Below, piece after piece: positions 1 to 11,865 of a DNA stretch of 11,865 nucleotides (positions are counted from its first letter, which is position 1; every line of letters starts with the position of its first letter). The position numbers and the translations under genes are program-made. Under the pieces are notes generated by a model. It had not been told where the DNA came from. It saw only the letters and a program-made list of their open reading frames with translations, and did no database searches. The DNA is from a virus (taxonomy: Duplodnaviria; Heunggongvirae; Uroviricota; Caudoviricetes), in the IMG/VR virus record IMGVR_UViG_2703718850_000008; one strand, written 5' to 3'.

Positions 1-1322
1 TTACCAGCCTACAGCAATACCCCCTCCGATTACTGCTCCATCAGTATTATTCCATGAAGACGATGCACGAATATTGGTGTTTTCATTAAGTTTGTATTGA
101 ACACCAACAGCTACTGCATTACCGTTTCTATAGTTACCAACCCCAACGCCGGCACTAAATGTCTGGTTATTCACATACGGGATATTGGTCATTGCTGCTA
201 CGGAAGCAATACCTGCATTAGCTTTTTTAGCATTAGCTTCTATCTTATCATTCAGCTGCTTAAATGTTGAATTTATCTTCCCATTAATTTGGTTAAATTT
301 TGTATCAGTATATGCGAATGATTCTTGTTTTGCTGATTGTATGTTTTTATTAATAACACCGTTATTTTTCGTAACTTCCTGATCAGTGTATGCCATTGAT
401 TCGCTTTTGGCATTATTAATATTCTGNNNNNNNNNNNNNNNNNNNNNNNNNNNNNNNNNNNNNNNNNNNNNNNNNNNNNNNNNNNNNNNNNNNNNNNNNN
501 NNNNNNNNNNNNNNNNNNNNNNNNNTTATTAATATTCTGATTTATCACAGCATTATTTTTGGTAACCTGCTGATCTGTATATGCCAGTGATTCATTCTTG
601 GCATTATTGATGTTTTGATTAATTACGGTATTATTTTTAGCTATCTCATTCCCAGTATAATCTTTCAGTTGCTTAACGTTAACACCATCAGTATCCTCAG
701 TACCTGCGGCAACATGGGTCAATTGTCGATTAGTATTACCCGTCCCAAAAGATACACTATACTCTCTGTCAGTTGTACTTCCCCCGCCGATGGCAACACT
801 ATTATTATGTTCAGCCACACTCTGTGAGCCTAGTGAGATGGCATTTTCTGCATTAGATGTAGCCCCTACACCAATAGCTAATGTATCTCCTGCAGTCGCC
901 TGGGCGGAGGAACCAAATGCAACACTGTTTTCCCCGGTTGCTTTAGACGCAGCACCTACACTTGTAGAATTAGCGACTGCCTCACTACCCGCACCATTTG
1001 CTATAGCTGAATCACCGTTTACTTTACTAAATGAACCAATGGCTACCGAGTTATTTCCAACAACATTTGCATTTGCGCCAATAGCTGACGATGAGTTACC
1101 TTGAGATGAAGAATATGAACCAATTGCAGTATTATAGGCTCCTTCGGTTTTTGAAACAGCGCCAATTGTTGTAGAAGAAGAACCTGAAGCATTTGCATAT
1201 GCACCAATAGCTGTCGCATTACTATCAGTTGCCTGGCTATTATCACCGGCATTATAAGAATTATATGCATAAGAATTTGCTGAAACTGTAAATATAACAG
1301 AGGCTACAAATAGTTTTTTCAT
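1..1322 (-). CDS. Trimeric autotransporter adhesin (YadA-like), C-terminus complete, interrupted by assembly gap 427..525 so frame and length across the gap are unknown
   Basis: ATG at 1322..1320 gives MKKLFVASVIFTVSANSYA, a Sec-type signal peptide with AxA-like cleavage site. Head region has repeated NSVAIG / SxAxG-type motifs. Stalk has about 26-aa repeats (YTDQQVTKNNAVINQNINNAKNESLA). The last ~70 aa (GIASVAAMTNIPY...GGGIAVGW, stop at 3..1) look like a YadA-type membrane anchor ending in an aromatic residue. The ORF-track start at 1364 is a TTG upstream of the signal peptide and is not preferred. Confidence 0.8.
250..700 (-). repeat. Tandem in-frame coding repeats (about 78 nt / 26 aa) of the adhesin stalk
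   Basis: Near-identical nucleotide blocks at 412..426, 526..540 and, diverged, 603..618 (78-nt offset between the last two). Protein repeats NINNAK(N/S)ES(L/M)AYTDQ(Q/E)VTKNN(A/G)VIN occur on both sides of the gap. Boundaries are approximate. Confidence 0.6.
427..525. other. Assembly gap (run of 99 N) inside the adhesin coding sequence
   Basis: Uninterrupted N run. Both flanks carry the same repeat (ATTATTAATATTCTG at 412..426 and 526..540), consistent with a collapse or scaffold join inside a tandem repeat. Confidence 0.95.
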
Positions 1323-1900
1323 AGAAATGACGTATGTTAAATAGATTGAAAAGATAAGATTCAAATCAATTAAATGACGCTTTAAAAATAAGCGGCAGGA
1401 TTTTATTCATCTGATAAAAATAGCGCAAGAGTTGTCTTATATGGAATATTCAGATAAGTCTTATTGAAAAAAACGGTATAACAAATACATAACATTACGG
1501 CCATTATACATACATTATAAAAATTACAGAGATATTTAATTAAATCCAAAGCATTTTTTCAATATGGATTTCGAAGAACTTGTTATAGTACATTAATCAA
1601 TCAATTATTGGTATTTCGCTCACTGTTCATATAGTTTTAATACATCAATGCATAAGAACATTTTCTCATTCATAAAAGCGATAAAAACTGTTGTACCTTA
1701 TATTGTTAATGTTTGGTAACAAAGACAAATCCAACAAGGCATTGATCATCCCCTATGATACCCATAGAAAGAATTATCTGACATATAATAACGATATAAA
1801 GTATATTATTGCTAATGAAACTATATGATAGCTTCACATTCAGCAATACCTGCTCAACCTTATCTCTGGAAATGAACATTGCTAACTTTCCTACTCCTTA
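1323..1900 (-). promoter_or_regulatory. Long AT-rich non-coding leader upstream of the adhesin gene, presumed promoter/regulatory region
   Basis: About 0.58 kb with no ORF of note on either strand and strongly AT-rich runs. No specific -35/-10 could be fixed by eye. Confidence 0.3.
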
Positions 1901-2118
1901 ATCCTTCTCCCAGAGCGCATCATCCACACCGACAATCCCCTCAGGCATCAGCCAGGTGACATTTTCCGCTAATGGGCTGGTTCAGAGATAAATAGTGCGT
2001 CCCCGGAAGCCAAGTCAAGGAGCATTTTTCCCCTGTGACCTTCAACGGCTACTTACTGTTTAAAAACAGCTACGATGCCAGCATAGATACTCTTGAATAC
2101 GATGTACTACGTTTTTTC

Positions 2119-2849
2119 TTATTCTGGACTGAACTCCCTAACCTGCTTCAAATCCAGGAGATTGCTCAGTTCCTCTTTCATTTCACGCTGATGACGATAA
2201 ATCTCATTATTGCGATCAACCTGCGCCATAGCTGCAGCCAGCTCCTCCAGTTCCGTCATCGACAGTTTCACCTGCTGATTATCAGCATCACTCCATGTCA
2301 TAACGTCCCACTGCCCTGAGTTAGCCCCTGCAGCCATTACCACCGGGTAAAGGCGGGCCAGCGAGTCGGGGCCGCCATTCCAGGTGTGTCCGTTCCATTC
2401 GAATGTGAACGGCTGCGCTTCCTGTTCTGTGCGCCACACCTCGATTTCCCGCTTTCTGGCATCCTTTCCCACGGCGATAAGTTCTGGCGTGACGGTGAAC
2501 GCAGGGCTGTCCAGTGGCGCTTTTGTTTTCGTCTCGTCCATGACGGTTTTGACAGCCTTTGGCGTGGCTGCCAGTACTTCGCTGTCGTTGTCTGTATCAC
2601 TACAGAGTTGCGCCAGACCTTTTTTGTCGTGGAAGCATTGCTTCCCTTCAGATCATCAACTATCCATTGCGCCTCGTCCCTGTGCTGTTTCGCGCTCTGC
2701 TGCGCCTGCACCACAGTTTCCTGTCACCACGTCGGCAACTGTGCGCATCACACCTCTGAGGTGTTTACCCGGGATTTCAGAGTTATGTGGCATCCGTACA
2801 TGGGGATGCCTGCGCCATCAATCAGCGCACCTGATATCACTACAGACAT
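2119..2849 (-). pseudogene. Remnant of a side tail fibre (Stf-like) gene: short N-terminal ORF, frame disruption, then a C-terminal ORF in another frame
   Basis: ATG at 2849..2847 encodes MSVVISGALIDGAGIPMYGCHITLKSRVNTSEV and then TGA at 2750..2748; this resembles the lambda-type Stf N-terminus as I recall it (MAVKISGVLKDGTGKPVQNCTIQLKARRNS...). In another frame, open from 2652 to the stop at 2119, the translation contains SEVLAATPKAVKTVMDETKTKAPLDSPAFT, matching the LAATPKAVK..MDET..KAPL.SPA motif of Stf/P2 gpH-type fibres. The ORF-track call 2119..2541 is only the part after an internal Met. The total span is far shorter than an intact fibre gene. Confidence 0.55.
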
Positions 2850-2872
2850 AGTTTTTCTCGCGATAAATTAAA

Positions 2873-3418
2873 TCAGGAAGAGGCTTCCAGAGAGACGGGC
2901 CATTCAATGGCGTTATATGAGGATTTATCAGTGATGGTGCTGAAATCCATCGCCTGCAGCGATTTCGCGTAAATGCGGTACGCTTTCAGCTTCTCCCTGT
3001 CGTCGTCACTGATTAATCCCAGCAGCAGGTCTTTTTCCCATTCGCTGGTCATGATGCTGACCCGTTGTAACAGGGCATCGCGCTCATCTTCCGCTTTAAG
3101 TTTGTAGTCGAAGACAAATTTATCGTCGCGGTAAAACCAGTAACCAGGCACGGTAATACGGCGGTTAGCGGTAATATCAGGAACTTCAATAACACTGGCG
3201 TTACGGGGTTCAATGCCTGTCACATCCTTACCGACCCATACCACGCGCCCGTCTCCGGTGTAAACCATTTTTATGGTGTCACTGGCAAAATTTTTCAGCT
3301 CTTCATACCAGTTTTGGTCATCTTCCGAAAAAAGCCAGGTGATACCATGTTGTTTTGTCATCTGATATTGTTCTGCGGTTTTCGGATTGCCTGCAGTAAT
3401 ATTTTTTAAATGCAACAT
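2873..3418 (-). CDS. Tail fibre assembly protein (Tfa, P2 gpG-like)
   Basis: N-terminus MLHLKNITAGNPKTAEQYQMTKQHGITWLFSEDDQNWYEELKNF...VIEVPDITANRR closely follows the conserved Tfa/gpG N-terminal domain as I recall it. The ATG lies 2 nt after the tail fibre stop, and the gene sits directly downstream of the fibre gene. Confidence 0.85.
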   Translation of the reverse strand: MLHLKNITAGNPKTAEQYQMTKQHGITWLFSEDDQNWYEELKNFASDTIKMVYTGDGRVVWVGKDVTGIEPRNASVIEVPDITANRRITVPGYWFYRDDKFVFDYKLKAEDERDALLQRVSIMTSEWEKDLLLGLISDDDREKLKAYRIYAKSLQAMDFSTITDKSSYNAIEWPVSLEASS

Positions 3419-3420
3419 TG

Positions 3421-4974
3421 TTAAACACTCGCCACGTTATACCAGGTGCCGTTAATCAGTTTCTGAAGCGGTCGGTAATACACGCCGTTGACGTTATCCG
3501 CTGAATTTTTACCAGTATCCGATATCGATATCCCTGACAATCCGTGTCCCGCAGGAGCGTGATATGTCCAAGAGATTACATTGCTGCCAGGTTTGTAATA
3601 CATTTCGGAACCATAGCGCACATCCTGCACGCCGCCATTTCGCTGCTGATAACGGGCATCGAAATTTCCATAGTTTGATGGGGTCATCTGTCCGTTTACA
3701 GCGAATGTGATACTGCCATCGGTATTTCTCTGGCTGTAAAAATGCCAGCCGGAATCATCACCAAGCTCTGCAACTACAGGTCGGGATGAATTACCCCATA
3801 AATTAAACGTTGCGTTTTTCGTGGAGTTGTTGGCGCTGGATAACGTGAATTTTTTAGCATTTCCGGCCTGAATATTTTTTAACGCTATCGCCACACCATT
3901 CTGGAAACGAAATACATGCTGTCCATTCGCATAAACATCCAGAATGCCGTCGCCGTTTTGTTTTATACCTGTATCGTTATCCCCGAAAGCAATTGAGTTT
4001 CCGCCCAGCGCGTTCTGAACGCCGATACCCAGTGCACCATTGACCTGAGAACCACCGCCAACAGACACTTTATGCGACATGGATATCTCTCCTGTCCGCA
4101 AATTAATGGTGAGCGGACGCAGGGGACCAATATCTCCATTCTCGCCCTGACCTTCACTAGTAGGGATAAGGTGCAGGCACTCTTCAGAACGGCGAAAAAT
4201 AAGGCCAAAAGCCTCGTTAAAAATCCTCAATGCATTAACACCACGTATTTTCAGCTCCCCGGTCATCAAATCACCAGATTTTTTTACATATCGCAGATCA
4301 AAATCTGAATAGATATTGCCGGGGTTTATCACACTGAAATAGCTTTTCTCGCTATCAAGAAGGCAAATCAAAGGAATACCCTTAATGATATCATTCGCTA
4401 CCAGCTCGGACTTGTTCCCCTTATAAAGTGGGAACGTACCAAGAACCTTTCCGCCTAGTGTTAGTTGAAGTGTCGCCGCGTTGGTATTGTTCTGAACGGG
4501 GAAAACTATAATCGGGGTTCGTAGCGTCCAATCTGTACCTCCATTAACAAAAAACGTCGAGGGAAGTTCCAGCGTCAGTGCGTTTGCAGTGCCACCAGTA
4601 ACACCCGCAATATAATGACCGCTCTGAAGCTGCGCTATCTGTACGAAATAGTTTTCCGAACCACGCGTGGCAAAGTTAGCCACAACATCATTAAGGGACC
4701 AACCTTTCGCGGTTGTTCCTTCCTGCCCACGAATGACTTTCAACACATCACCGCTTACCGATACCAAGTGACAAATCTCAAATGCAGACTCTTTATTATC
4801 GGTAAGCGTAATTTTTGCATAGACGCGTTGCCCGTTCGATTTATTTTCAAAATCGGCAGAAAGCAATTTTGCAAATTTAGCCCCTGTACCGGGCATTACC
4901 GGAATATCAGTCTGAATCGTGGTGATATCACCAGCCAGTACTGAAACAACGTTATTGCCGAACCCAAGAATCAT
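3421..4974 (-). CDS. Tail fibre protein (C-terminal region like P2 gpH-type receptor-binding region; N-terminus distinct)
   Basis: 517 aa. The C-terminal ~150 aa (NALGGNSIAFGDNDTGIKQNGDGILDVYANGQHVFRFQNGVAIALKNIQAGNAKKFTLSS...RPVVAELGDDSGWHFYSQRNTDGSITFAVNGQMTPSNYGNFDARY...INGTWYNVASV) match the conserved C-terminal block of P2 H-type fibres as recalled. The start codon overlaps the upstream gene stop (ATGA at 4971..4974). Confidence 0.85.
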   Translation of the reverse strand: MILGFGNNVVSVLAGDITTIQTDIPVMPGTGAKFAKLLSADFENKSNGQRVYAKITLTDNKESAFEICHLVSVSGDVLKVIRGQEGTTAKGWSLNDVVANFATRGSENYFVQIAQLQSGHYIAGVTGGTANALTLELPSTFFVNGGTDWTLRTPIIVFPVQNNTNAATLQLTLGGKVLGTFPLYKGNKSELVANDIIKGIPLICLLDSEKSYFSVINPGNIYSDFDLRYVKKSGDLMTGELKIRGVNALRIFNEAFGLIFRRSEECLHLIPTSEGQGENGDIGPLRPLTINLRTGEISMSHKVSVGGGSQVNGALGIGVQNALGGNSIAFGDNDTGIKQNGDGILDVYANGQHVFRFQNGVAIALKNIQAGNAKKFTLSSANNSTKNATFNLWGNSSRPVVAELGDDSGWHFYSQRNTDGSITFAVNGQMTPSNYGNFDARYQQRNGGVQDVRYGSEMYYKPGSNVISWTYHAPAGHGLSGISISDTGKNSADNVNGVYYRPLQKLINGTWYNVASV

Positions 4975-5597
4975 TTTTGAATCACCGTTGTTGCATAAGA
5001 ATAAATAAAAGGGAGTTTTACATATTTCTGGTCAATGGCATCTTTCAGAAAATAGCCTATACCATCACCATATTCTGGTATATGAATAGAAAAAACACTG
5101 TCCGACACAGTCACGCTCACATCAAAAGTGTGCTGCAACGGCGGGTCTATTCCGTTTTTCCCATGAATGAACCGTGCCACACGGCGCTTTAACCAGTCAA
5201 TGCAGAAATGCGAACCGTCAGCCTTATAAAAATTCCAAGTTAATATTCGCTTGAAATAATCATCCGGAACATACGATGCCTGCCCCGGAACATAATTCCG
5301 CATTGCCGCATAAGGGATTGTATTGTATTCAATGGTATCGTATGCGCCGCGTGCAATAGCCTCCTCGGAAACCTGTAGTAAAGGCCTTTCAACGCCATAA
5401 ATCCCGAGAGCAATCCAGTCCAGCAATTGCCCGGTTATTGATTCCGATGTCCAGCATGGCAATGCCAGATTGTTGAGTGAATCGAGGTATTCCTGAGCAA
5501 TTTCATTGTATGCATCAAAGAACGCAACAACATTCGGATCATCTCTGTACTGCACAAACGGATAAGCAGGGAGAATTTTTTCAGTCAGATATTGCAT
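4971..5597 (-). CDS. Tail/baseplate protein in the gpI position (I-like, DUF2313-type by position)
   Basis: Start taken at the ATG at 5597..5595 (MQYLTEKILPAYP...) rather than the ORF-track start at 5705, because the upstream part of that ORF overlaps the J-like gene. The stop overlaps the fibre start. It lies between the J-like gene and the tail fibre, as in P2 (J-I-H) and Mu (gp47-gp48-fibre). Family assigned by position and size only. Confidence 0.5.
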   Translation of the reverse strand: MQYLTEKILPAYPFVQYRDDPNVVAFFDAYNEIAQEYLDSLNNLALPCWTSESITGQLLDWIALGIYGVERPLLQVSEEAIARGAYDTIEYNTIPYAAMRNYVPGQASYVPDDYFKRILTWNFYKADGSHFCIDWLKRRVARFIHGKNGIDPPLQHTFDVSVTVSDSVFSIHIPEYGDGIGYFLKDAIDQKYVKLPFIYSYATTVIQK

Positions 5598-6807
5598 ACT
5601 TGTTAACTTGAACCTGTGATGCCACTGTCGAAAAATAGGAATAGGTATCGCCATAAACCAGGCTTGTGTCTTTTGCCGGAAGAACAATATGACCATTAAT
5701 GCCAATGCTCACACTGATTGTTGAGATCAACGTCGCATCAACCAGCAACCTGACAGAACTGGTAAAAATATCCTGGATACGCAGAAGATTTATCGGGTGT
5801 CCGACTTCAATTGAATTGATGTAATCAGCAACGTTTTGCTGCACAGCCATAGCAATACCCGCCGGATCAACATAATCATCAGACACCGTGTTCCAGGTGA
5901 TTAGCACCATGACGTTTTGTGATGACGGGATAACGAACGGCACCTGATAAACGTCCGGCGAAACGGTTATTGAAACCGTGCGTTTTTCCACTGCCGCACC
6001 GGATGGATTGCTTACATCGTTGGTCAGTTTCGAAATATCCGGTACAGATTTGTAAATCGCATAAGCCACATCATACGGATCACCGCCACCAACAACCGCA
6101 ACCCATTTCCCCAGCGACGACTGCCGGAAAGAAATCAGGTTTTCTCGCACACCGCTTACTGATTTGAGCATCGCTTTATAGCAATCCGGTGTTCCCTGCA
6201 CACCAAACATACCGGACTCCATGACTTCGGCGCGGTAAGATGCCCACGTCTGCGCCTCCTGACCTGGCATCCCTGCGGTAAGGTTCGTGCATTTTACAGG
6301 CTGGTCTTTTGGTACTGAGGTAATAACCTGCGTCACAGTCCCTTCCGGTACAGCCCATGAGCCTGACGTTGTGGCCACACAGTAGACTGGTTCAGTCTGC
6401 CCACTTTCCGGCACCACCGTATCGCGGGAAACTGCATACTGGTAGTTGCCATCACCGACAACAAATCCTTTAGGGATACCAAACCCCGGCAACGCCTCAA
6501 ATACCACGTATACCGCCGTATTTGTACTTAATCCCTTCTGTGCTCCATAAATGTTTCCGAGTTGCATCAGTAACGGAATATTTGCGCCGTATGGGCTTAC
6601 GGAGTTAATAAGGTCCACCCGCGCCTGGTCTATTAATGCCAGCGCCCCGACTGCCGTGCTGGCAAGGTCAGTAATAAGCCCCGCCGGAAGGTTGGCTGTA
6701 TATCCAGGTACTTTTTCAGCAACTCTGATGATAAGATTTGCAAGCAAATCATTGGGTGGCGTAGGCTGCGCCCCCGCACTGGTCATAGTAATTGGTATTT
6801 CTGACAT
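5581..6807 (-). CDS. Baseplate wedge protein, J-like (P2 gpJ / Mu gp47 position)
   Basis: 408-aa ORF with ATG at 6807 preceded by GGAG (6816..6813) at 5-nt spacing. It overlaps the I-like start by 17 nt and sits immediately upstream of the I-like and fibre genes. Assignment is mainly by synteny and size; sequence similarity was not verified. Confidence 0.5.
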   Translation of the reverse strand: MSEIPITMTSAGAQPTPPNDLLANLIIRVAEKVPGYTANLPAGLITDLASTAVGALALIDQARVDLINSVSPYGANIPLLMQLGNIYGAQKGLSTNTAVYVVFEALPGFGIPKGFVVGDGNYQYAVSRDTVVPESGQTEPVYCVATTSGSWAVPEGTVTQVITSVPKDQPVKCTNLTAGMPGQEAQTWASYRAEVMESGMFGVQGTPDCYKAMLKSVSGVRENLISFRQSSLGKWVAVVGGGDPYDVAYAIYKSVPDISKLTNDVSNPSGAAVEKRTVSITVSPDVYQVPFVIPSSQNVMVLITWNTVSDDYVDPAGIAMAVQQNVADYINSIEVGHPINLLRIQDIFTSSVRLLVDATLISTISVSIGINGHIVLPAKDTSLVYGDTYSYFSTVASQVQVNKYAISD

Positions 6808-6820
6808 ATTTACTCCATTA

Positions 6821-6845
6821 AAAAACCCGCTTTCGCGGGTTTTTT
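6821..6845. terminator. Intrinsic (rho-independent) terminator hairpin, symmetric, between the nuclease gene and the J-like gene
   Basis: AAAAACCCGC-TTTC-GCGGGTTTTTT: GC-rich stem of 6-7 bp with a 4-nt loop, flanked by an A-tract on one side and a T-tract on the other, so it is U-tailed on either strand. It starts 3 nt beyond the nuclease stop (6848..6850) on the minus strand. Confidence 0.6.
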
Positions 6846-6847
6846 AC

Positions 6848-8008
6848 TTATTCAACCTCTTCTAAACTGCTCACTCTGGACCCTCGGCGGAAATTATCAT
6901 CATTTTTAACATACTCGTATGAATCCAGAATCAAACCAGATATGCGAAGTATATCTTCCGGATTAGTTATATGTATCCTTTTACCATCCGTATCAAGTCG
7001 AGCTCGTCTTATTTCATTCAACTGAACTTCACTAAGCGAAATAGGTAAAGTTATAAATGAAGATTTTTTATCATAAAATCTTAACAGCCATCTATTAGTT
7101 TTACCATTCAATAGCACACCAAAATATGACTCAGTATCTTTATATTCTATATTATCTTCTGTTTGTATGATTTGTTTTACCCTTTCAAATAGCTCCAATT
7201 CTTTGGCTGTGGTTATTATGTTGGGGTTTTCTTCATCAACAATGGCGTTATTAACTTGTGTATCCGTTGCATCATTTTCTTTAGTTTGCTCTACCGGTTG
7301 TGTAGATAGCCCGGAAACCACCATTGCGCTAACAGCGCGCTCAACGGCCTGTTTAACTAATGGAGTCACGAACTCAAGAAATCTCTGATTAAGTTGTCTC
7401 TCAATATTTGAACGACTAGCAACATATCGAACAAACTCCAGATCAACTTCACGAAGACTAGAACTGATTGTTTTAGTAAATGAATTCAAATAAACACTTT
7501 CTTCAGCCAGTGTCCGTAAAGCCTCTGGTTTGAATTTATCATAACGAAAACGAAATAATTGTGTAATATCGGAGTGAGTTAGAGAATCCATTCTTATTTT
7601 TAAAAACGGCGTTGAATCCATTATGTTTTTTTGTTTCAAATCCGTAAAAAAACGCCATTCAACACCATTTGTAATGGCTGATATAGTAACTTCCGGTGTT
7701 GAATTAAAATATCTTGATAGCTGTGGGCAGTGATTATCAATTTGTTCTGAAAACGATTTCGCCTCAATGAACATCACAGGAACATCATGACAAAATAAAG
7801 CGTAATCAACCCGTTCATTAGCCTTAACCCCGGGGAAGTCAGCACTATACTCAGCTTTGACTTTTCTTGGATCATACGGAGTAAAACCAAGAATATCTAG
7901 TAATGGCATAATGAGTGCTTGTTTTGTCGTTTCTTCAGTTGTACAAAACACCCCCATTTTTGCAACATGCTCTGTGTGTATTTTTAACTTATTTGCAAAA
8001 TTTTCCAT
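6848..8008 (-). CDS. PD-(D/E)xK nuclease with HsdR-N-terminal-like domain plus uncharacterised C-terminal domain; prophage cargo (moron), candidate defence/exclusion protein
   Basis: Start taken at the ATG at 8008..8006 (MENFANKLK...) because GGAGGAG lies 6 nt upstream; the in-frame ATG at 8023 has no SD. The N-terminal ~150 aa carry TEETTKQALIMPLLDILGF...ERVDYALF...VMFIEAKS, i.e. the E...D...EAK pattern and the LIxPxLxxLG motif typical of type I restriction HsdR N-terminal-like PD-(D/E)xK domains. The coding sequence is visibly more AT-rich than the flanking tail genes and is followed by its own terminator. Confidence 0.7.
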   Translation of the reverse strand: MENFANKLKIHTEHVAKMGVFCTTEETTKQALIMPLLDILGFTPYDPRKVKAEYSADFPGVKANERVDYALFCHDVPVMFIEAKSFSEQIDNHCPQLSRYFNSTPEVTISAITNGVEWRFFTDLKQKNIMDSTPFLKIRMDSLTHSDITQLFRFRYDKFKPEALRTLAEESVYLNSFTKTISSSLREVDLEFVRYVASRSNIERQLNQRFLEFVTPLVKQAVERAVSAMVVSGLSTQPVEQTKENDATDTQVNNAIVDEENPNIITTAKELELFERVKQIIQTEDNIEYKDTESYFGVLLNGKTNRWLLRFYDKKSSFITLPISLSEVQLNEIRRARLDTDGKRIHITNPEDILRISGLILDSYEYVKNDDNFRRGSRVSSLEEVE

Positions 8009-8036
8009 GCTTGTCTCCTCCATGGTAACAATATGT

Positions 8037-8066
8037 ATTTTGCAAATCCGAAATAATATATGTCAA
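8037..8066 (-). promoter_or_regulatory. Putative sigma70-type promoter for the nuclease gene (TTGACA - 18 nt - CAAAAT)
   Basis: Minus-strand TTGACA at 8066..8061 followed after 18 nt by CAAAAT at 8042..8037, about 30 nt upstream of the start codon, within a 149-bp AT-rich intergenic region. The -10 is weak; this is a prediction by eye only. Confidence 0.25.
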
Positions 8067-8157
8067 TATGCTCCAGCTTAGAAAATTACTCGCCCCCCTA
8101 AAATATCTCTCTACAGCACTCCAAACCAAGGTAAAAGTTTTATCATAAAACTGTGAT

Positions 8158-8505
8158 TCATACCGGCACCTGCGTCCGGTAACTGGTCCCATTAAAAAAC
8201 ACAACATCGATGTTATAGGTGGGGTTATCTGCTCCATCTACCTTTGAAATTGCCAGTGATGCAAAATACCCAGCAAACTGTTGCTGAACCATGTTCACAT
8301 AGTAGTCTGGGTAAATCTGCTGCACGATGCACTGCTGTGCAGGAATACCGTAATTCGCGTAAAACGGCGACTCCCCCAATCCCAGCTTTAACGTCTGAAT
8401 GAGCGTCGTCAGCCAGCCGTAGGAGAAATCACCGTTGGCGTCAGATTCTACTGCAACCCATTTTTTGTTGCCGTTCGCGTCGGTGACGCGGCCCCATGTT
8501 CTCAT
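8158..8505 (-). CDS. Baseplate protein, gpW / gp25-like (sheath-initiator family) by motif, size and position
   Basis: 115 aa, sitting between the V-like and J-like genes where W sits in P2/Mu. It contains LIQTLKLGLGESPFYANYG, which aligns with the gp25/gpW signature as I recall it (T4 gp25 ...TTRKGSRPFDPEFG, P2 W ...TPVGSRVMRRDYG; spacing G-x8-(Y/F)G conserved). The start overlaps the upstream ORF stop (ATGA). Confidence 0.45.
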   Translation of the reverse strand: MRTWGRVTDANGNKKWVAVESDANGDFSYGWLTTLIQTLKLGLGESPFYANYGIPAQQCIVQQIYPDYYVNMVQQQFAGYFASLAISKVDGADNPTYNIDVVFFNGTSYRTQVPV

Positions 8506-8705
8506 CGTGCCCCCATCACTTTAACTAACTCTGTCAGTACTGGTGAAAAGGCAAATGCTAAAGCTACGAGTGCAGCGGTGTAATACATGCGTCGTAAGGT
8601 ATTGCTTTTTGCCACTAATTTTAAGGCTTTCACAATCCAGTCTCCTCCGCTAAAATTAATCACGGAAGACCTCCAAACATACGTAATCATCCCTTGCGTA
8701 TTCAA
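8502..8705 (-). CDS. Small hypothetical protein with a hydrophobic C-terminal segment; start uncertain
   Basis: The ORF-track start is a TTG inside the T-tract of the upstream terminator, which is implausible. A GTG at about 8600 preceded by GGAGGAG would give a ~43-aa product ending in YYTAALVALAFAFSPVLTELV, a possible transmembrane helix. It may not be a real gene. Confidence 0.25.
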   Translation of the reverse strand: MNTQGMITYVWRSSVINFSGGDWIVKALKLVAKSNTLRRMYYTAALVALAFAFSPVLTELVKVMGAR

Positions 8706-8717
8706 GGTGAGAAACAG

Positions 8718-8749
8718 AAAACCCCGACTGGGCCAACAGTCGGGGTTTT
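8718..8749. terminator. Intrinsic terminator-like hairpin downstream of the V-like gene
   Basis: AAAACCCCGACTG-GGCCAA-CAGTCGGGGTTTT: 13-bp stem, 6-nt loop. On the minus strand it is followed by TTTTCTGTTTCT; on the plus strand by TTTTCGTTTT. Confidence 0.55.
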
Positions 8750-8787
8750 CGTTTTATGGTCAGAATTTAAAGTGAAATGAACCGGTA

Positions 8788-9501
8788 TTAACCAGGATTT
8801 GGTTTCTTCGACGTAATCGTGCTGCTGCCGCTTTGAACACCAGTCACATCGTGGCTGTGGCCGCTGACGCTCACGCCGTTGATAACTGCATCCATCTCGA
8901 CATTAAGAGGACCAATCAGCGAAGCGGTTGTATCCTTCATCTGGGCTTTGTCCTGGACGATCGGTCCATTGAGGTGAATTTTCCCGTTCAGGAAAATATC
9001 TTCGGCCTCGAGGTAAACAGCTTTCGACTTTTGCCTGATTTCTTCCAGAGCCACCATTACCGAGCTACTGCCGTCCTCTGTTTTGAGGATCGCGCCATCC
9101 GGACCGTACAAAACGATTTTTTGCGGATCTTCGTCGGACCACTCCTTGTTTGCCAATGGCACGAAAAACAGGGGAGTGAGCGACATCGAGTAAGAAAGCG
9201 TTGCCATACCGGTTCCCAATCCGGACACACCGCGCAGTGATACATCAGCGGCAATTGTTACTCCTCGATCGCCCGGCTGTATCGGGTAACGGATATACGG
9301 GAATGTGGCGACAGGGATTGTTATCTGCGGGAAGTTGATCCCCTCCGGCAGCATATCAAACTGAACTGTCACTATTTGCCCGCAGATATCGACAACATGG
9401 CAGGGCAATTCGCGGCCTTTAAGCTCGGCTTGCTGGTTACCAGAACTGGTCATCATCTCCGACAGTGTTCGGAGAAACGGTAATTTTTGAGCGTTTGACA
9501 T
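8788..9501 (-). CDS. Baseplate central spike protein, gpV-like
   Basis: 237 aa. The C-terminal SGHSHDVTGVQSGSS resembles the His-containing apex motif of P2 gpV / Mu gp45 spikes (P2 V ...HTHKHPGDSGG as recalled). It sits upstream of the W-like gene, and its start overlaps the upstream stop (TAATG). Confidence 0.5.
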   Translation of the reverse strand: MSNAQKLPFLRTLSEMMTSSGNQQAELKGRELPCHVVDICGQIVTVQFDMLPEGINFPQITIPVATFPYIRYPIQPGDRGVTIAADVSLRGVSGLGTGMATLSYSMSLTPLFFVPLANKEWSDEDPQKIVLYGPDGAILKTEDGSSSVMVALEEIRQKSKAVYLEAEDIFLNGKIHLNGPIVQDKAQMKDTTASLIGPLNVEMDAVINGVSVSGHSHDVTGVQSGSSTITSKKPNPG

Positions 9502-10508
9502 TACACCCTCGCCCAGTTCTCAGCATATGCCTCAAATACCGTCACCCAGGCATCGCCATCGGCTGTCAGATACGAACCAATGTGTCTGACTGATTTCACA
9601 AGAAATTTCCCGGTGAACGTGGTCGAATTTTTTGCGATAACGCTGGGTACCGTTGTATTAGCCATCACAATCGACGCAGCGCCAGAATATAGCCCCTCCG
9701 GCAGTTTAACCACATCACCACATCTGATATCGCCTCTCATAGGGCATTTGAAACTGACGGTAAACGGCGCTATCCATGTCGGCTGCCCGACCAGTTCATG
9801 GGCATGAATTGTTTTTGGCTCACCCCACTTTGCCGATGCGTTATCGTAGATTCGTATTCTGTCGGAAAGAATACTGATGGCGATTCCGCTATACCTTTCA
9901 TTACGCATCATCGCAATAGAGGCGTTTTTTACGACCATAGCCAGCGAACCAATCTCCGTATATTTGCCCGTCCACGGCTCTGGCAAAACCAGGTTGTCGC
10001 TGACTGTGCAATCAATAAGTTTATTGGGATATGCTTTTTGCAAAGCGCGGACTAAAACATCACCCACCCTTTCCCCTGCTTCCCCCTGCCCCTCAATTGA
10101 AAAAGGGTTACCGTCATCGGTTTTGCGTATGCTTGGATTTATTACCAGGTTTAAAGTCTGGTTCGTGCCGATCCAGTTGGCATAGGCCAGATAAATTTCA
10201 CCATAGATTACCTCCCCCTGTTGATCCTTATTTGCCAGTGGTAACCCCTGAACAAAGCCTGCTTTCATACGTACCAGACAACCCTGCAAACTTACGCTTT
10301 GCTTCAGCATGTCAATTGGTAATCCATAGATCGTCAGCATCGTACCCGAACAGACTACATCCAGGCCGGTTACTTCAAAGTCAAATTCAACATGCAACCC
10401 ACATCCTGGTGTTTCATTGGTATCAAAAGGTCCAATGGGTTTTCCATTGCTATCCACTGGCGGCTTGCCTGTTTTAGGATTAATAATTTCCAGTCGGTAA
10501 TAACGCAT
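9501..10508 (-). CDS. Phage baseplate/tail morphogenesis protein (possible hub-type protein); family unresolved
   Basis: 335-aa ORF, translationally coupled on both sides (TAATG overlaps at 9501 and 10508), immediately upstream of the spike gene. No motif recognised. Confidence 0.45.
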   Translation of the reverse strand: MRYYRLEIINPKTGKPPVDSNGKPIGPFDTNETPGCGLHVEFDFEVTGLDVVCSGTMLTIYGLPIDMLKQSVSLQGCLVRMKAGFVQGLPLANKDQQGEVIYGEIYLAYANWIGTNQTLNLVINPSIRKTDDGNPFSIEGQGEAGERVGDVLVRALQKAYPNKLIDCTVSDNLVLPEPWTGKYTEIGSLAMVVKNASIAMMRNERYSGIAISILSDRIRIYDNASAKWGEPKTIHAHELVGQPTWIAPFTVSFKCPMRGDIRCGDVVKLPEGLYSGAASIVMANTTVPSVIAKNSTTFTGKFLVKSVRHIGSYLTADGDAWVTVFEAYAENWARV

Positions 10509-10774
10509 TACGAAACCTCAAACTGATTCGTACTTTCGCGAAAAACAAGTTTCCCCGGAGAGCAAGGCAGCGCCAGATTGATGTCGTAACTGTCAGGTGA
10601 CGCGATCAAAGGCATGTATACAATCACGTCGCCTGAACTGTCTTTCAGTTCCAGGTAGTAACGATTTGCATACAGATTAAACGGAACGCGGGCGAATGTT
10701 TCATATTCTCCGATTCTGGCAGTGAACTGAAATGGTCCTCGCCCGTCAGGTTTGAAAGGAATTAACGTTGTCAT
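10508..10774 (-). CDS. Small phage tail-module protein, function unknown
   Basis: 88-aa ORF with start/stop overlaps to both neighbours (ATGA at 10771..10774, TAATG at 10508). Coding is inferred from operon context only. Confidence 0.4.
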   Translation of the reverse strand: MTTLIPFKPDGRGPFQFTARIGEYETFARVPFNLYANRYYLELKDSSGDVIVYMPLIASPDSYDINLALPCSPGKLVFRESTNQFEVS

Positions 10775-11439
10775 AAGCCAAAACCAAACTCCTGCACGAC
10801 CTGGTTCTTAATACCTGACCACGATAGCGCCCCGTCTGACGGCATCCCTTTATCAAATTTATCCAGAACGCTCGCCAGCGTTTTTACCGTTTGTTCGACA
10901 GACGACAATGGTTGCTCAAACTCAATCTGCCAGGTGTGCTGAACCTGCTTGTTCTGCTCAGAGAAACCGGATGTATCGATAAACGACCGCATCAGACAGC
11001 GCGTGTAGATGAAAGATGGCGTCATTACGGTGTAACAACCGCCATACTGGTTATGCATATCGAGCGCCATTTTCAGCGCCGTGAATGTCATCCCCTTAGT
11101 GATGTAGCCACCGTCCTCCGTTGATGCCGGACGGATCATCTGCATGACTACCCGGTTAGGCTTCTTGACGGTCGCATTCGCTGCCGTTACCTGGTTATAG
11201 AAATTCAGGTTGCAAATATCCTGCTGAACCAACGTTGTCCCCGCCATCGGGGTAAATGCCGCCATCGAGCGTGTACGAATCTCGCCATGCAGCAGACCGT
11301 TCACAATGCTTAGGCCTTCGGTCAAAACAGCAATCGGCATCACCCCGCCGGGAATTTTCGACGCTATGCCATCAACTAAAAGAATGGGCGATACTTCAAA
11401 CGCCAGTTTGAAAGCTTGTCCAAAGTAATTAAGTGACAT
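10771..11439 (-). CDS. Phage tail/baseplate morphogenesis protein, function unknown
   Basis: 222-aa ORF. The ATG at 11439 follows the upstream stop (11443..11445) by 3 nt and is preceded by a G-rich SD-like stretch. Part of the same coupled operon. Confidence 0.45.
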   Translation of the reverse strand: MSLNYFGQAFKLAFEVSPILLVDGIASKIPGGVMPIAVLTEGLSIVNGLLHGEIRTRSMAAFTPMAGTTLVQQDICNLNFYNQVTAANATVKKPNRVVMQMIRPASTEDGGYITKGMTFTALKMALDMHNQYGGCYTVMTPSFIYTRCLMRSFIDTSGFSEQNKQVQHTWQIEFEQPLSSVEQTVKTLASVLDKFDKGMPSDGALSWSGIKNQVVQEFGFGL

Positions 11440-11442
11440 GGT

Positions 11443-11850
11443 TTACCCCGGTATTTGTTGCATTCCGGCGAGTTGTGCCAGTATGTCGGAACCTGGTTTT
11501 TGTTGAACGTCGAGCCTGATTACCTGAGAAGTATTATTTGGTGAATATACCTTCCCCCGGTTCATTGCCAGCGCCCGCATCACATCATCGCCACTTACTG
11601 CACGAGCGGCGTCCCCATTTTCATGGTTAATAATGCCCTGAATTAGCTTTCTCATTATCTCAAAATTAGAACCATCGATTTTCTCCTTAACACCTAATCC
11701 AGTGTACTGAGAGAGATAGCTTTTATAGGACGATGTGTTATTTCCATCAGATGAAGGGGCATAAATATCAATAATCTGATCAATCGTATTTTTGCCGCGT
11801 TTCAGGTATAGCATTACTTGCCGATCTAAGGCAGCAATGCCTTCCAGCAT
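11443..11850 (-). CDS. Phage tail-module protein, probably 5'-truncated by the window edge
   Basis: ORF with an internal Met at 11850; the reading frame stays open (A-S-F-P-T-M) to the window edge at 11865, so the true start may lie outside the window. Function unknown. Confidence 0.4.
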   Translation of the reverse strand: MLEGIAALDRQVMLYLKRGKNTIDQIIDIYAPSSDGNNTSSYKSYLSQYTGLGVKEKIDGSNFEIMRKLIQGIINHENGDAARAVSGDDVMRALAMNRGKVYSPNNTSQVIRLDVQQKPGSDILAQLAGMQQIPG

Positions 11851-11865
11851 CGTCGGGAAGCTGGC

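Follow-up and report, generated by a model that had tools for sequence, protein, structure and literature searches.

The window, that is, the whole stretch of 11,865 nucleotides analysed here, carries at its left end a minus-strand gene (1322..1) for a putative trimeric autotransporter adhesin (TAA), and this gene is interrupted by a run of 99 N at 427..525. As written, the two pieces of the gene do not share a reading frame, and the question is whether the adhesin is disrupted in this strain or whether the break belongs to the assembly, and how many stalk repeats the gene then encodes. We assign a probability of about 0.8 to the reading that the N run is a scaffold gap left by short-read assembly at near-identical 78-nt tandem units, within an intact TAA gene whose true sequence is in register.

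The gene starts with an ATG at 1322 and ends with a stop codon at 3..1; it was delimited (1..1322, minus strand) from its translation and from Pfam, PDB sequence and closed-genome matches, and its relatives in RefSeq are annotated as 'YadA-like family protein'. The 5′ fragment (1322..526) comprises 797 nt and the 3′ fragment (426..1) 426 nt, stop included. A probable Sec signal peptide, MKKLFVASVIFTVSANSYA, was recognized by reading the sequence at 1266..1322. It precedes a YadA-like head made of 14-residue beta-roll repeats (726..1247), in which Pfam YadA_head matched four stretches of the 5′ fragment (68.4 bits for a cut-off of 25), residues 57-223 aligned with 1p9h, and direct repeats of 42/84 nt (family D2) were found. 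The neck and the start of the stalk (600..725) correspond to a match of the same fragment to Pfam YadA_stalk/neck PF05662 at residues 200-241 (32.7 bits for a cut-off of 28.4). The last coiled-coil segment and a C-terminal beta-barrel membrane anchor occupy 1..261, with the stop codon at the end; there, Pfam YadA_anchor matched residues 86-141 of the 3′ fragment (35 bits for a cut-off of 22.7), in addition to PDB entries 2lme and 9vnj. In PDB sequence matches of the reconstructed protein, the YadA head 1p9h was recovered with an E value of 6.5e-22, and the YadA anchor 2lme covered residues 315-397. With YadA-like head repeats followed by a neck (Pfam and 1p9h), a coiled-coil stalk that lies between last neck and anchor, with the YxD motif and the periodicity described below, and a C-terminal YadA-type beta-barrel anchor (Pfam and 2lme), the predicted gene product is a trimeric autotransporter adhesin of the type Vc secretion class.

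The initial annotation had placed the gap inside 78-nt tandem repeats encoding 26-residue stalk units of a TAA, and this was borne out by the Pfam matches to head, neck and anchor and by alignment of the units. The array that the N run breaks spans 262..686. In the direction of the gene, it begins with a degenerate 26-aa unit, U0 (GVNVKQLKDYTGNEIAKNNTVINQNI, 609..686), 42 of whose 78 nt are identical to those of the next unit. The latter, U1 (NNAKNESLAYTDQQVTKNNAVINQNI, 531..608), is of the N type and has a G at gene position 777 (window 546). Comparison of the flanks showed that the upstream contig stops 5 nt (AATAA) into the following unit, at 526..530, and that the downstream contig begins 9 nt (CAGAATATT, 418..426) before the end of an N-type unit. 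Then come an S-type unit (NNAKSESMAYTDQEVTKNNGVINKNI, 340..417), identical to U1 at 61/78 nt and 21/26 residues, and, from the comparison of units, a degenerate last unit of the Q type (QSAKQESFAYTDTKFNQINGKINSTF, 262..339). The array has a GC content of 29.4%. In a gap-free allele, TRF detected it with a period of 78, 4.1 copies, 93% matches and a score of 521; in the window the 78-nt array was missed, because the N run breaks it.

At the protein level, AYTD, a YxD motif, recurs each 26 residues, once per unit, and the peak of the stalk's hydrophobic periodicity lies at 3.70-3.71, which equals 26/7. Right-handed TAA stalks, located between the last neck and the anchor, are characterized by a YxD motif in which x is usually T and by a periodicity of 3.7-3.83 (PMC2373917, daTAA). 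The stalk predicted here fits this right-handed, YxD-type description.

The repeat is also present on both sides of the gap, as had been noted before: TTATTAATATTCTG abuts the N run at 413..426 and at 526..539, with an exact match over 14 nt. For this flank pair, 0.01 chance matches were expected, and none of 200 shuffles gave two. Beyond the motif, the 15th base (A at 412) could be compared only with an N. The same 14 nt stand on both sides because the upstream contig runs 5 nt into a unit and the downstream contig includes the last 9 nt of one. A repeat search paired 341..426 with 532..617 (86 nt, 78% identity, spacing 191). Since the spacing of the units across the gap, 191, equals 99 + 92, the true gap must measure −14 + 78n nt, i.e. 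−14, 64, 142 nt and so on.

This has a direct bearing on the reading frame. As written, the gene amounts to 797 + 99 + 426 = 1322 nt, which is 2 mod 3, and the fragments are indeed out of frame with each other, as the initial annotation stated. A gap of −14, +64 or +142 nt is in each case itself 1 mod 3 and gives one open reading frame, of 402, 428 and 454 aa, respectively. Every closure of the form −14 + 78n being 1 mod 3 and giving a single ORF, the frame does not represent the biological uncertainty that it had been taken for; on this arithmetic, the apparent frame difference is an artefact of the arbitrary length of the N run. A placeholder of 100 N would have left the fragments seemingly in frame. 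We rejected the idea that the run stands for 99 real, masked bases, as 99 is neither in register (−14 + 78n) nor in frame. Its length, which fits no in-register closure, is a placeholder or an estimate.

Gap-free relatives were used to see which alleles exist. The TAA gene was present in 29 of 5,426 complete E. coli genomes. Ten complete genomes were 99.9-100% identical to window 526..11865, and all of them had an intact TAA gene with 5 units and 1365 nt (1368 nt in two). The gene measured 1209 nt in strains C41 and ZYB62 and 1287 nt in A2. Further loci were chosen by contigs encoding an identical neighbouring DUF4376 protein. Loci that differed by just 5-10 mismatches over 5.2 kb of upstream sequence carried alleles of 402 aa (L029), 428 aa (L025 and seven similar places) and 454 aa (L032). 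The 428-aa length was also found in L026 and L028, with 35 and 303 upstream positional differences, respectively, and the 454-aa length in L024 and L030, with 140 and 1,955. The same three lengths (402, 428 and 454 aa) occurred in five IMG/VR prophage contigs, and the 3-unit alleles in IMG/VR contigs had been assembled without a break. A polymorphism in unit number was observed also in a chromosomal allele of 91% identity (MB31 versus 400660). The unit is a multiple of 3 and its copy number is polymorphic among isolates, as in an in-frame VNTR, and the sequences indicate that the difference between 3, 4 and 5 units is a real in-frame length polymorphism between strains. That the repeat number would differ between isolates, as the initial annotation had anticipated, is thus confirmed by 402-, 428- and 454-aa alleles in near-identical backgrounds.

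Other differences were seen among the relatives. In strain NWU_4 (L015), a 3-nt insertion adds a Met to the last N-type unit (AVMINQNI), making a protein of 455 aa; this insertion could be real or a long-read error. The same insertion was deduced for NWU_1 from an alignment span identical to that of NWU_4. At L027 (CP057139.1, locus 5219..6379), an in-frame deletion of 126 nt in the head removes 42 aa, i.e. three 14-residue head repeats, and there is otherwise 1 mismatch with the 428-aa allele; the number of head repeats therefore varies too. Paralogues on IncF plasmids of E. coli and E. albertii (L021, L022 and L023) have 5, 4 and 3 YxD units, respectively, with amino acid identities of 76-82% in E. 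coli and 72% in E. albertii, so that this 26-aa VNTR is variable in another lineage, too. Related TAA copies adjoin other prophage or IS remnants.

Which of these alleles the present strain carries was approached through the two fragments themselves. Both are identical, with 0 mismatches, to the 3-unit alleles of C41, L029 and L040, and equally, with 0 mismatches, to the 4-unit alleles of L025 and L036, in which the two N-type units are identical. At gene position 777, the window has a G, as do all 3-unit alleles, and every 5-unit allele has an A; read unit by unit, the pattern of this SNP is A-G-G in 5-unit alleles, A-G or G-G in 4-unit alleles and G in 3-unit alleles. A 21-mer spanning the N-to-N junction, CAGAATATTAATAATGCCAAG, occurs 0, 1 and 2 times in alleles of 3, 4 and 5 units, respectively, and is absent from the assembled window.

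In 3-unit alleles, the longest exact internal repeat has 11 nt; the maximum rises to 62-89 nt with 4 units and to 104 nt with 5. Alleles with at least two N-type units do give an assembler a cause to stop (exact repeats of 62-104 nt). The break at the array therefore indicates at least 4 units, because exact repeats of at most 11 nt, as in the 3-unit allele, would not halt an assembler. An unrelated draft E. coli contig, L033 (JACFDD010000002.1, locus 5220..6100), ends inside the same TAA gene, 11 nt into a unit, at the exact base where the N and S types diverge. Breaks therefore occur at this locus and are not unique to this assembly.

The initial annotation was right in that this assembly does not fix the number of repeats, which can now be narrowed to 3-5 units. 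Most likely there are 4, which would mean a gap of 64 nt, a protein of 428 aa and one more N-type unit, bringing the YxD units to four. In our judgement, which is not a computation, the odds for 4 units are slightly better than even, 3 units and 5 units are each unlikely, and any other count is very improbable. Some evidence speaks against 4 units. As the G at 777 is that of all 3-unit alleles, a simple 14-nt overlap of the contigs (402 aa) fits the sequence equally well; besides, 5 units are present in each of the ten complete genomes that share the 11-kb context, though these carry an A at 777 that is absent from the window, unless a collapsed repeat was given its majority base by the assembler. 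The length of the N run, 99, falls between 64 and 142 and decides for neither. A count of 5 units, which we had first deduced from the ten genomes of identical context, was dropped when the wider sample proved to have 3, 4 or 5 units in the same context, and also on account of the A at gene position 777 in all 5-unit alleles versus the G in the window.

We considered the possibility that no sequence is missing at all, and that the contigs simply overlap by 14 nt in a 3-unit, 402-aa allele and were left apart by poor coverage of a stretch with 29% GC. If this were the case, an allele without any exact internal repeat longer than 11 nt, in which nothing should stop an assembler, would have been broken at a unit junction, just as in the independent draft contig L033, and a scaffolder presented with overlapping contigs would have inserted about 100 N, which it would not normally do. 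Furthermore, the 3-unit alleles of IMG/VR were assembled unbroken. Yet the joined fragments reproduce the genes of C41, L029 and L040 with 0 mismatches, the G at 777 is that of all 3-unit alleles, and the array does have a low GC content (29.4%). Weighing these points, we regard the overlap as quite unlikely.

A real frameshift or stop codon hidden in the gap, which would make the gene a pseudogene, is hardly credible. With 99 N between them, the fragments do not share a frame, but the lengths of scaffold N runs are inexact, and an out-of-frame repeat array was found in 0 of about 30 gap-free relatives. Disrupted relatives do exist, though they are few, and their lesions lie elsewhere. GPEC349-628 (L017), whose chromosomal allele is the one of 91% identity, has lost 10 nt in the head, so that the gene is annotated as two ORFs, and GPEC1176 has the same alignment span and split annotation in the BLAST table; the GPEC349-628 copy is a real pseudogene, from a cause unrelated to the stalk repeats. 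In L031, an additional nucleotide (+1 nt) disrupts the gene, and the called ORF resumes at locus 5617, before the repeat array. In M24FEP, the TAA gene aligns only in part. Least credible of all is a chimeric join, in which the 3′ fragment (1..426) would derive from a second TAA paralogue on a plasmid or in another prophage. This fragment shows 0 mismatches to the gene at the same locus in the closed sequences mip270_05, A17, JNU and L025 and 31 mismatches to the 91% allele, even if there are paralogues from which it might have come (chromosomal, with 91% and 95.5% nucleotide identity; on IncF plasmids, with 76-82% amino acid identity). The scaffold gap at near-identical units in an intact gene is the reading that we retain.

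The initial annotation had also raised the possibility of phase variation. In a phase-variable (contingency) gene, a simple-sequence tract in the ORF or the promoter changes in length and thereby shifts the frame or the promoter spacing, which turns expression on and off. Within window 1..2200, homopolymers did not exceed 7 nt, tracts of 2-5-nt motifs did not reach 4 units, and TRF detected no tandem array. The 78-nt unit is a multiple of 3, and all alleles differing in repeat number were seen to be open. Phase variation is not supported by these sequences.

The rest of the window consists of a prophage tail module, with genes for baseplate hub, baseplate wedge/J, tail fibre and tail-fibre assembly protein, and this module is 92.7% identical at the nucleotide level to Escherichia phage Rac-SA53. 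In closed relatives (C41, A2 and mip270), the 26-nt Rac att site is found 332 nt downstream of the TAA stop codon, just before uspF-ompN. The TAA gene is missing from Rac-SA53, as is the AT-rich non-coding region upstream of it (1323..2118), with which it makes up a cargo segment. The GC content is 38.8% in the TAA gene, 33.5% in the 0.8-kb upstream region and 46.1% in the phage genes. Lying inside the prophage bounds, absent from a related phage and deviant in composition, the TAA gene with its AT-rich upstream region is best described, from sequence comparison, as cargo (a moron) at the tail-fibre end of a Rac-type prophage. A scan of 1..2200 for promoters and terminators gave results equal to chance expectation, and Rfam had no match in the window.

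The Rac att/cargo arrangement was read at window 1..2118, L001:3175-4740 and L004:14544-16265. Within the baseplate gene cluster, a minus-strand ORF of 391 aa (6848..8023) has an HSDR_N nuclease-like domain (Pfam PF04313/PF13588); it belongs to PHROG 4225 'endonuclease' and is called 'type I restriction endonuclease' in RefSeq relatives. The corresponding slot in Rac-SA53 is occupied, on the opposite strand, by an antirepressor gene and two hypothetical genes. By this comparison it looks like a variable cargo slot, possibly one for defence. The intact tail-fibre assembly gene is separated from the adhesin cargo by remnants of a second tail-fibre cassette (2035..2871), namely a DUF4376 ORF (2119..2541) and fragments annotated in relatives as a 'tail fiber N-terminal domain' ORF of 102 nt and as a tail-fibre assembly pseudogene with a frameshift.

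As to how the stalk changes its length, slippage or unequal recombination would generate the variants, acting between direct repeats with 62-104 nt in common; the SNP pattern at position 777 fits single unequal exchanges. One 26-aa unit would correspond to seven helical turns of a YxD-type coiled coil, with 26/7 = 3.71 residues per turn, and is probably composed of a 15-residue and an 11-residue repeat. Assuming a rise of about 0.15 nm per residue, the gain or loss of one unit would make the stalk about 3.9 nm longer or shorter, and would leave both the core register and the reading frame undisturbed. What is observed is a length polymorphism, not an on/off switch. One might go further and propose that the stalk VNTR is a fast-evolving, selected 'length dial', which would match the reach of the head to the thickness of O-antigen or capsule or serve the phage in its interactions with the host surface, and that alleles of 3, 4 and 5 units in backgrounds differing by about 0.1-0.2% reflect recurrent adaptive switching rather than neutral slippage. 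We think this proposal improbable.

A protein homology search, for which the 402-aa reconstruction served as query, recovered only distant relatives, with at most 55% identity over at least 57% of the query (for example from Proteus, Morganella and Xenorhabdus); the word filter of this search was saturated by the low-complexity head, and its results were of no use for repeat counts. A scan of genome contigs for the TAA yielded only Proteus (54-64%) and remote matches, and the four exact alleles were not among a clustered protein collection.

Among known adhesins, the Eib proteins of E. coli (EibA, C, D, E and G) are, like the protein studied here, TAAs of similar size borne by prophages. The eib genes reportedly lie on prophages, and phage P-EibE was among the matches of the TAA. 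Sequence relatedness does not place the protein in the Eib family: identity to EibE is 24%, and the match to EibD (PDB) is weak (E 3.8e-5) and limited to head and neck. YadA of Yersinia, the prototype TAA, which is encoded on the pYV plasmid, has the same architecture, consisting of signal peptide, 14-residue beta-roll head, neck, YxD-type stalk and C-terminal anchor. Right-handed TAA stalks are mainly built of 15-residue repeats (PMC2373917), whereas the repeat found here has 26 residues.

The closest functional analogue is Saa, the STEC autoagglutinating adhesin encoded on pO113, which is also an E. coli TAA with a variable number of repeats. The copies of the 3′ repeat unit vary in number between Saa variants, and this number showed no correlation with adherence (PMC4060028); PMC3592196 has no information on saa repeats. 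Saa is plasmid-borne and the gene described here is prophage-borne; the Saa unit measures 111 nt/37 aa (4.8 copies, 99% identity), compared with 78 nt/26 aa. Identity between the two proteins is 28% over 359 aa and, together with the 111-nt unit of Saa, this led us to reject orthology. More recently, Kotaka et al. 2026 (PMC13534694) gave the name 'Yal' to Saa-related TAAs of unknown function from LEE-negative STEC, forming a clade of EibG-like adhesins, and reported a chromosomal YalA in JNEC-KY180 and a plasmid-borne one in JNEC-KY178; variation in repeat number is not discussed in that work. JNEC-KY180 carries the gene analysed here at 99.9% identity, so that this gene, a relative of these adhesins, may encode a Yal protein; plasmid paralogues exist as well.

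The adhesin is an uncharacterised member of a well-known protein class, and the break in its gene is an artefact of assembly at an in-frame VNTR of an ordinary kind. Its split, seemingly frameshifted ORFs should be annotated as one intact adhesin gene with an assembly gap and not as a pseudogene. Short-read surveys may under-call or mis-size this TAA gene, and draft contigs can end at its repeat. A functional effect of the repeat number is not to be assumed here, variation in Saa not having been linked to adherence (PMC4060028). The gene is a further example of a TAA in which stalk length changes in steps of whole coiled-coil units.
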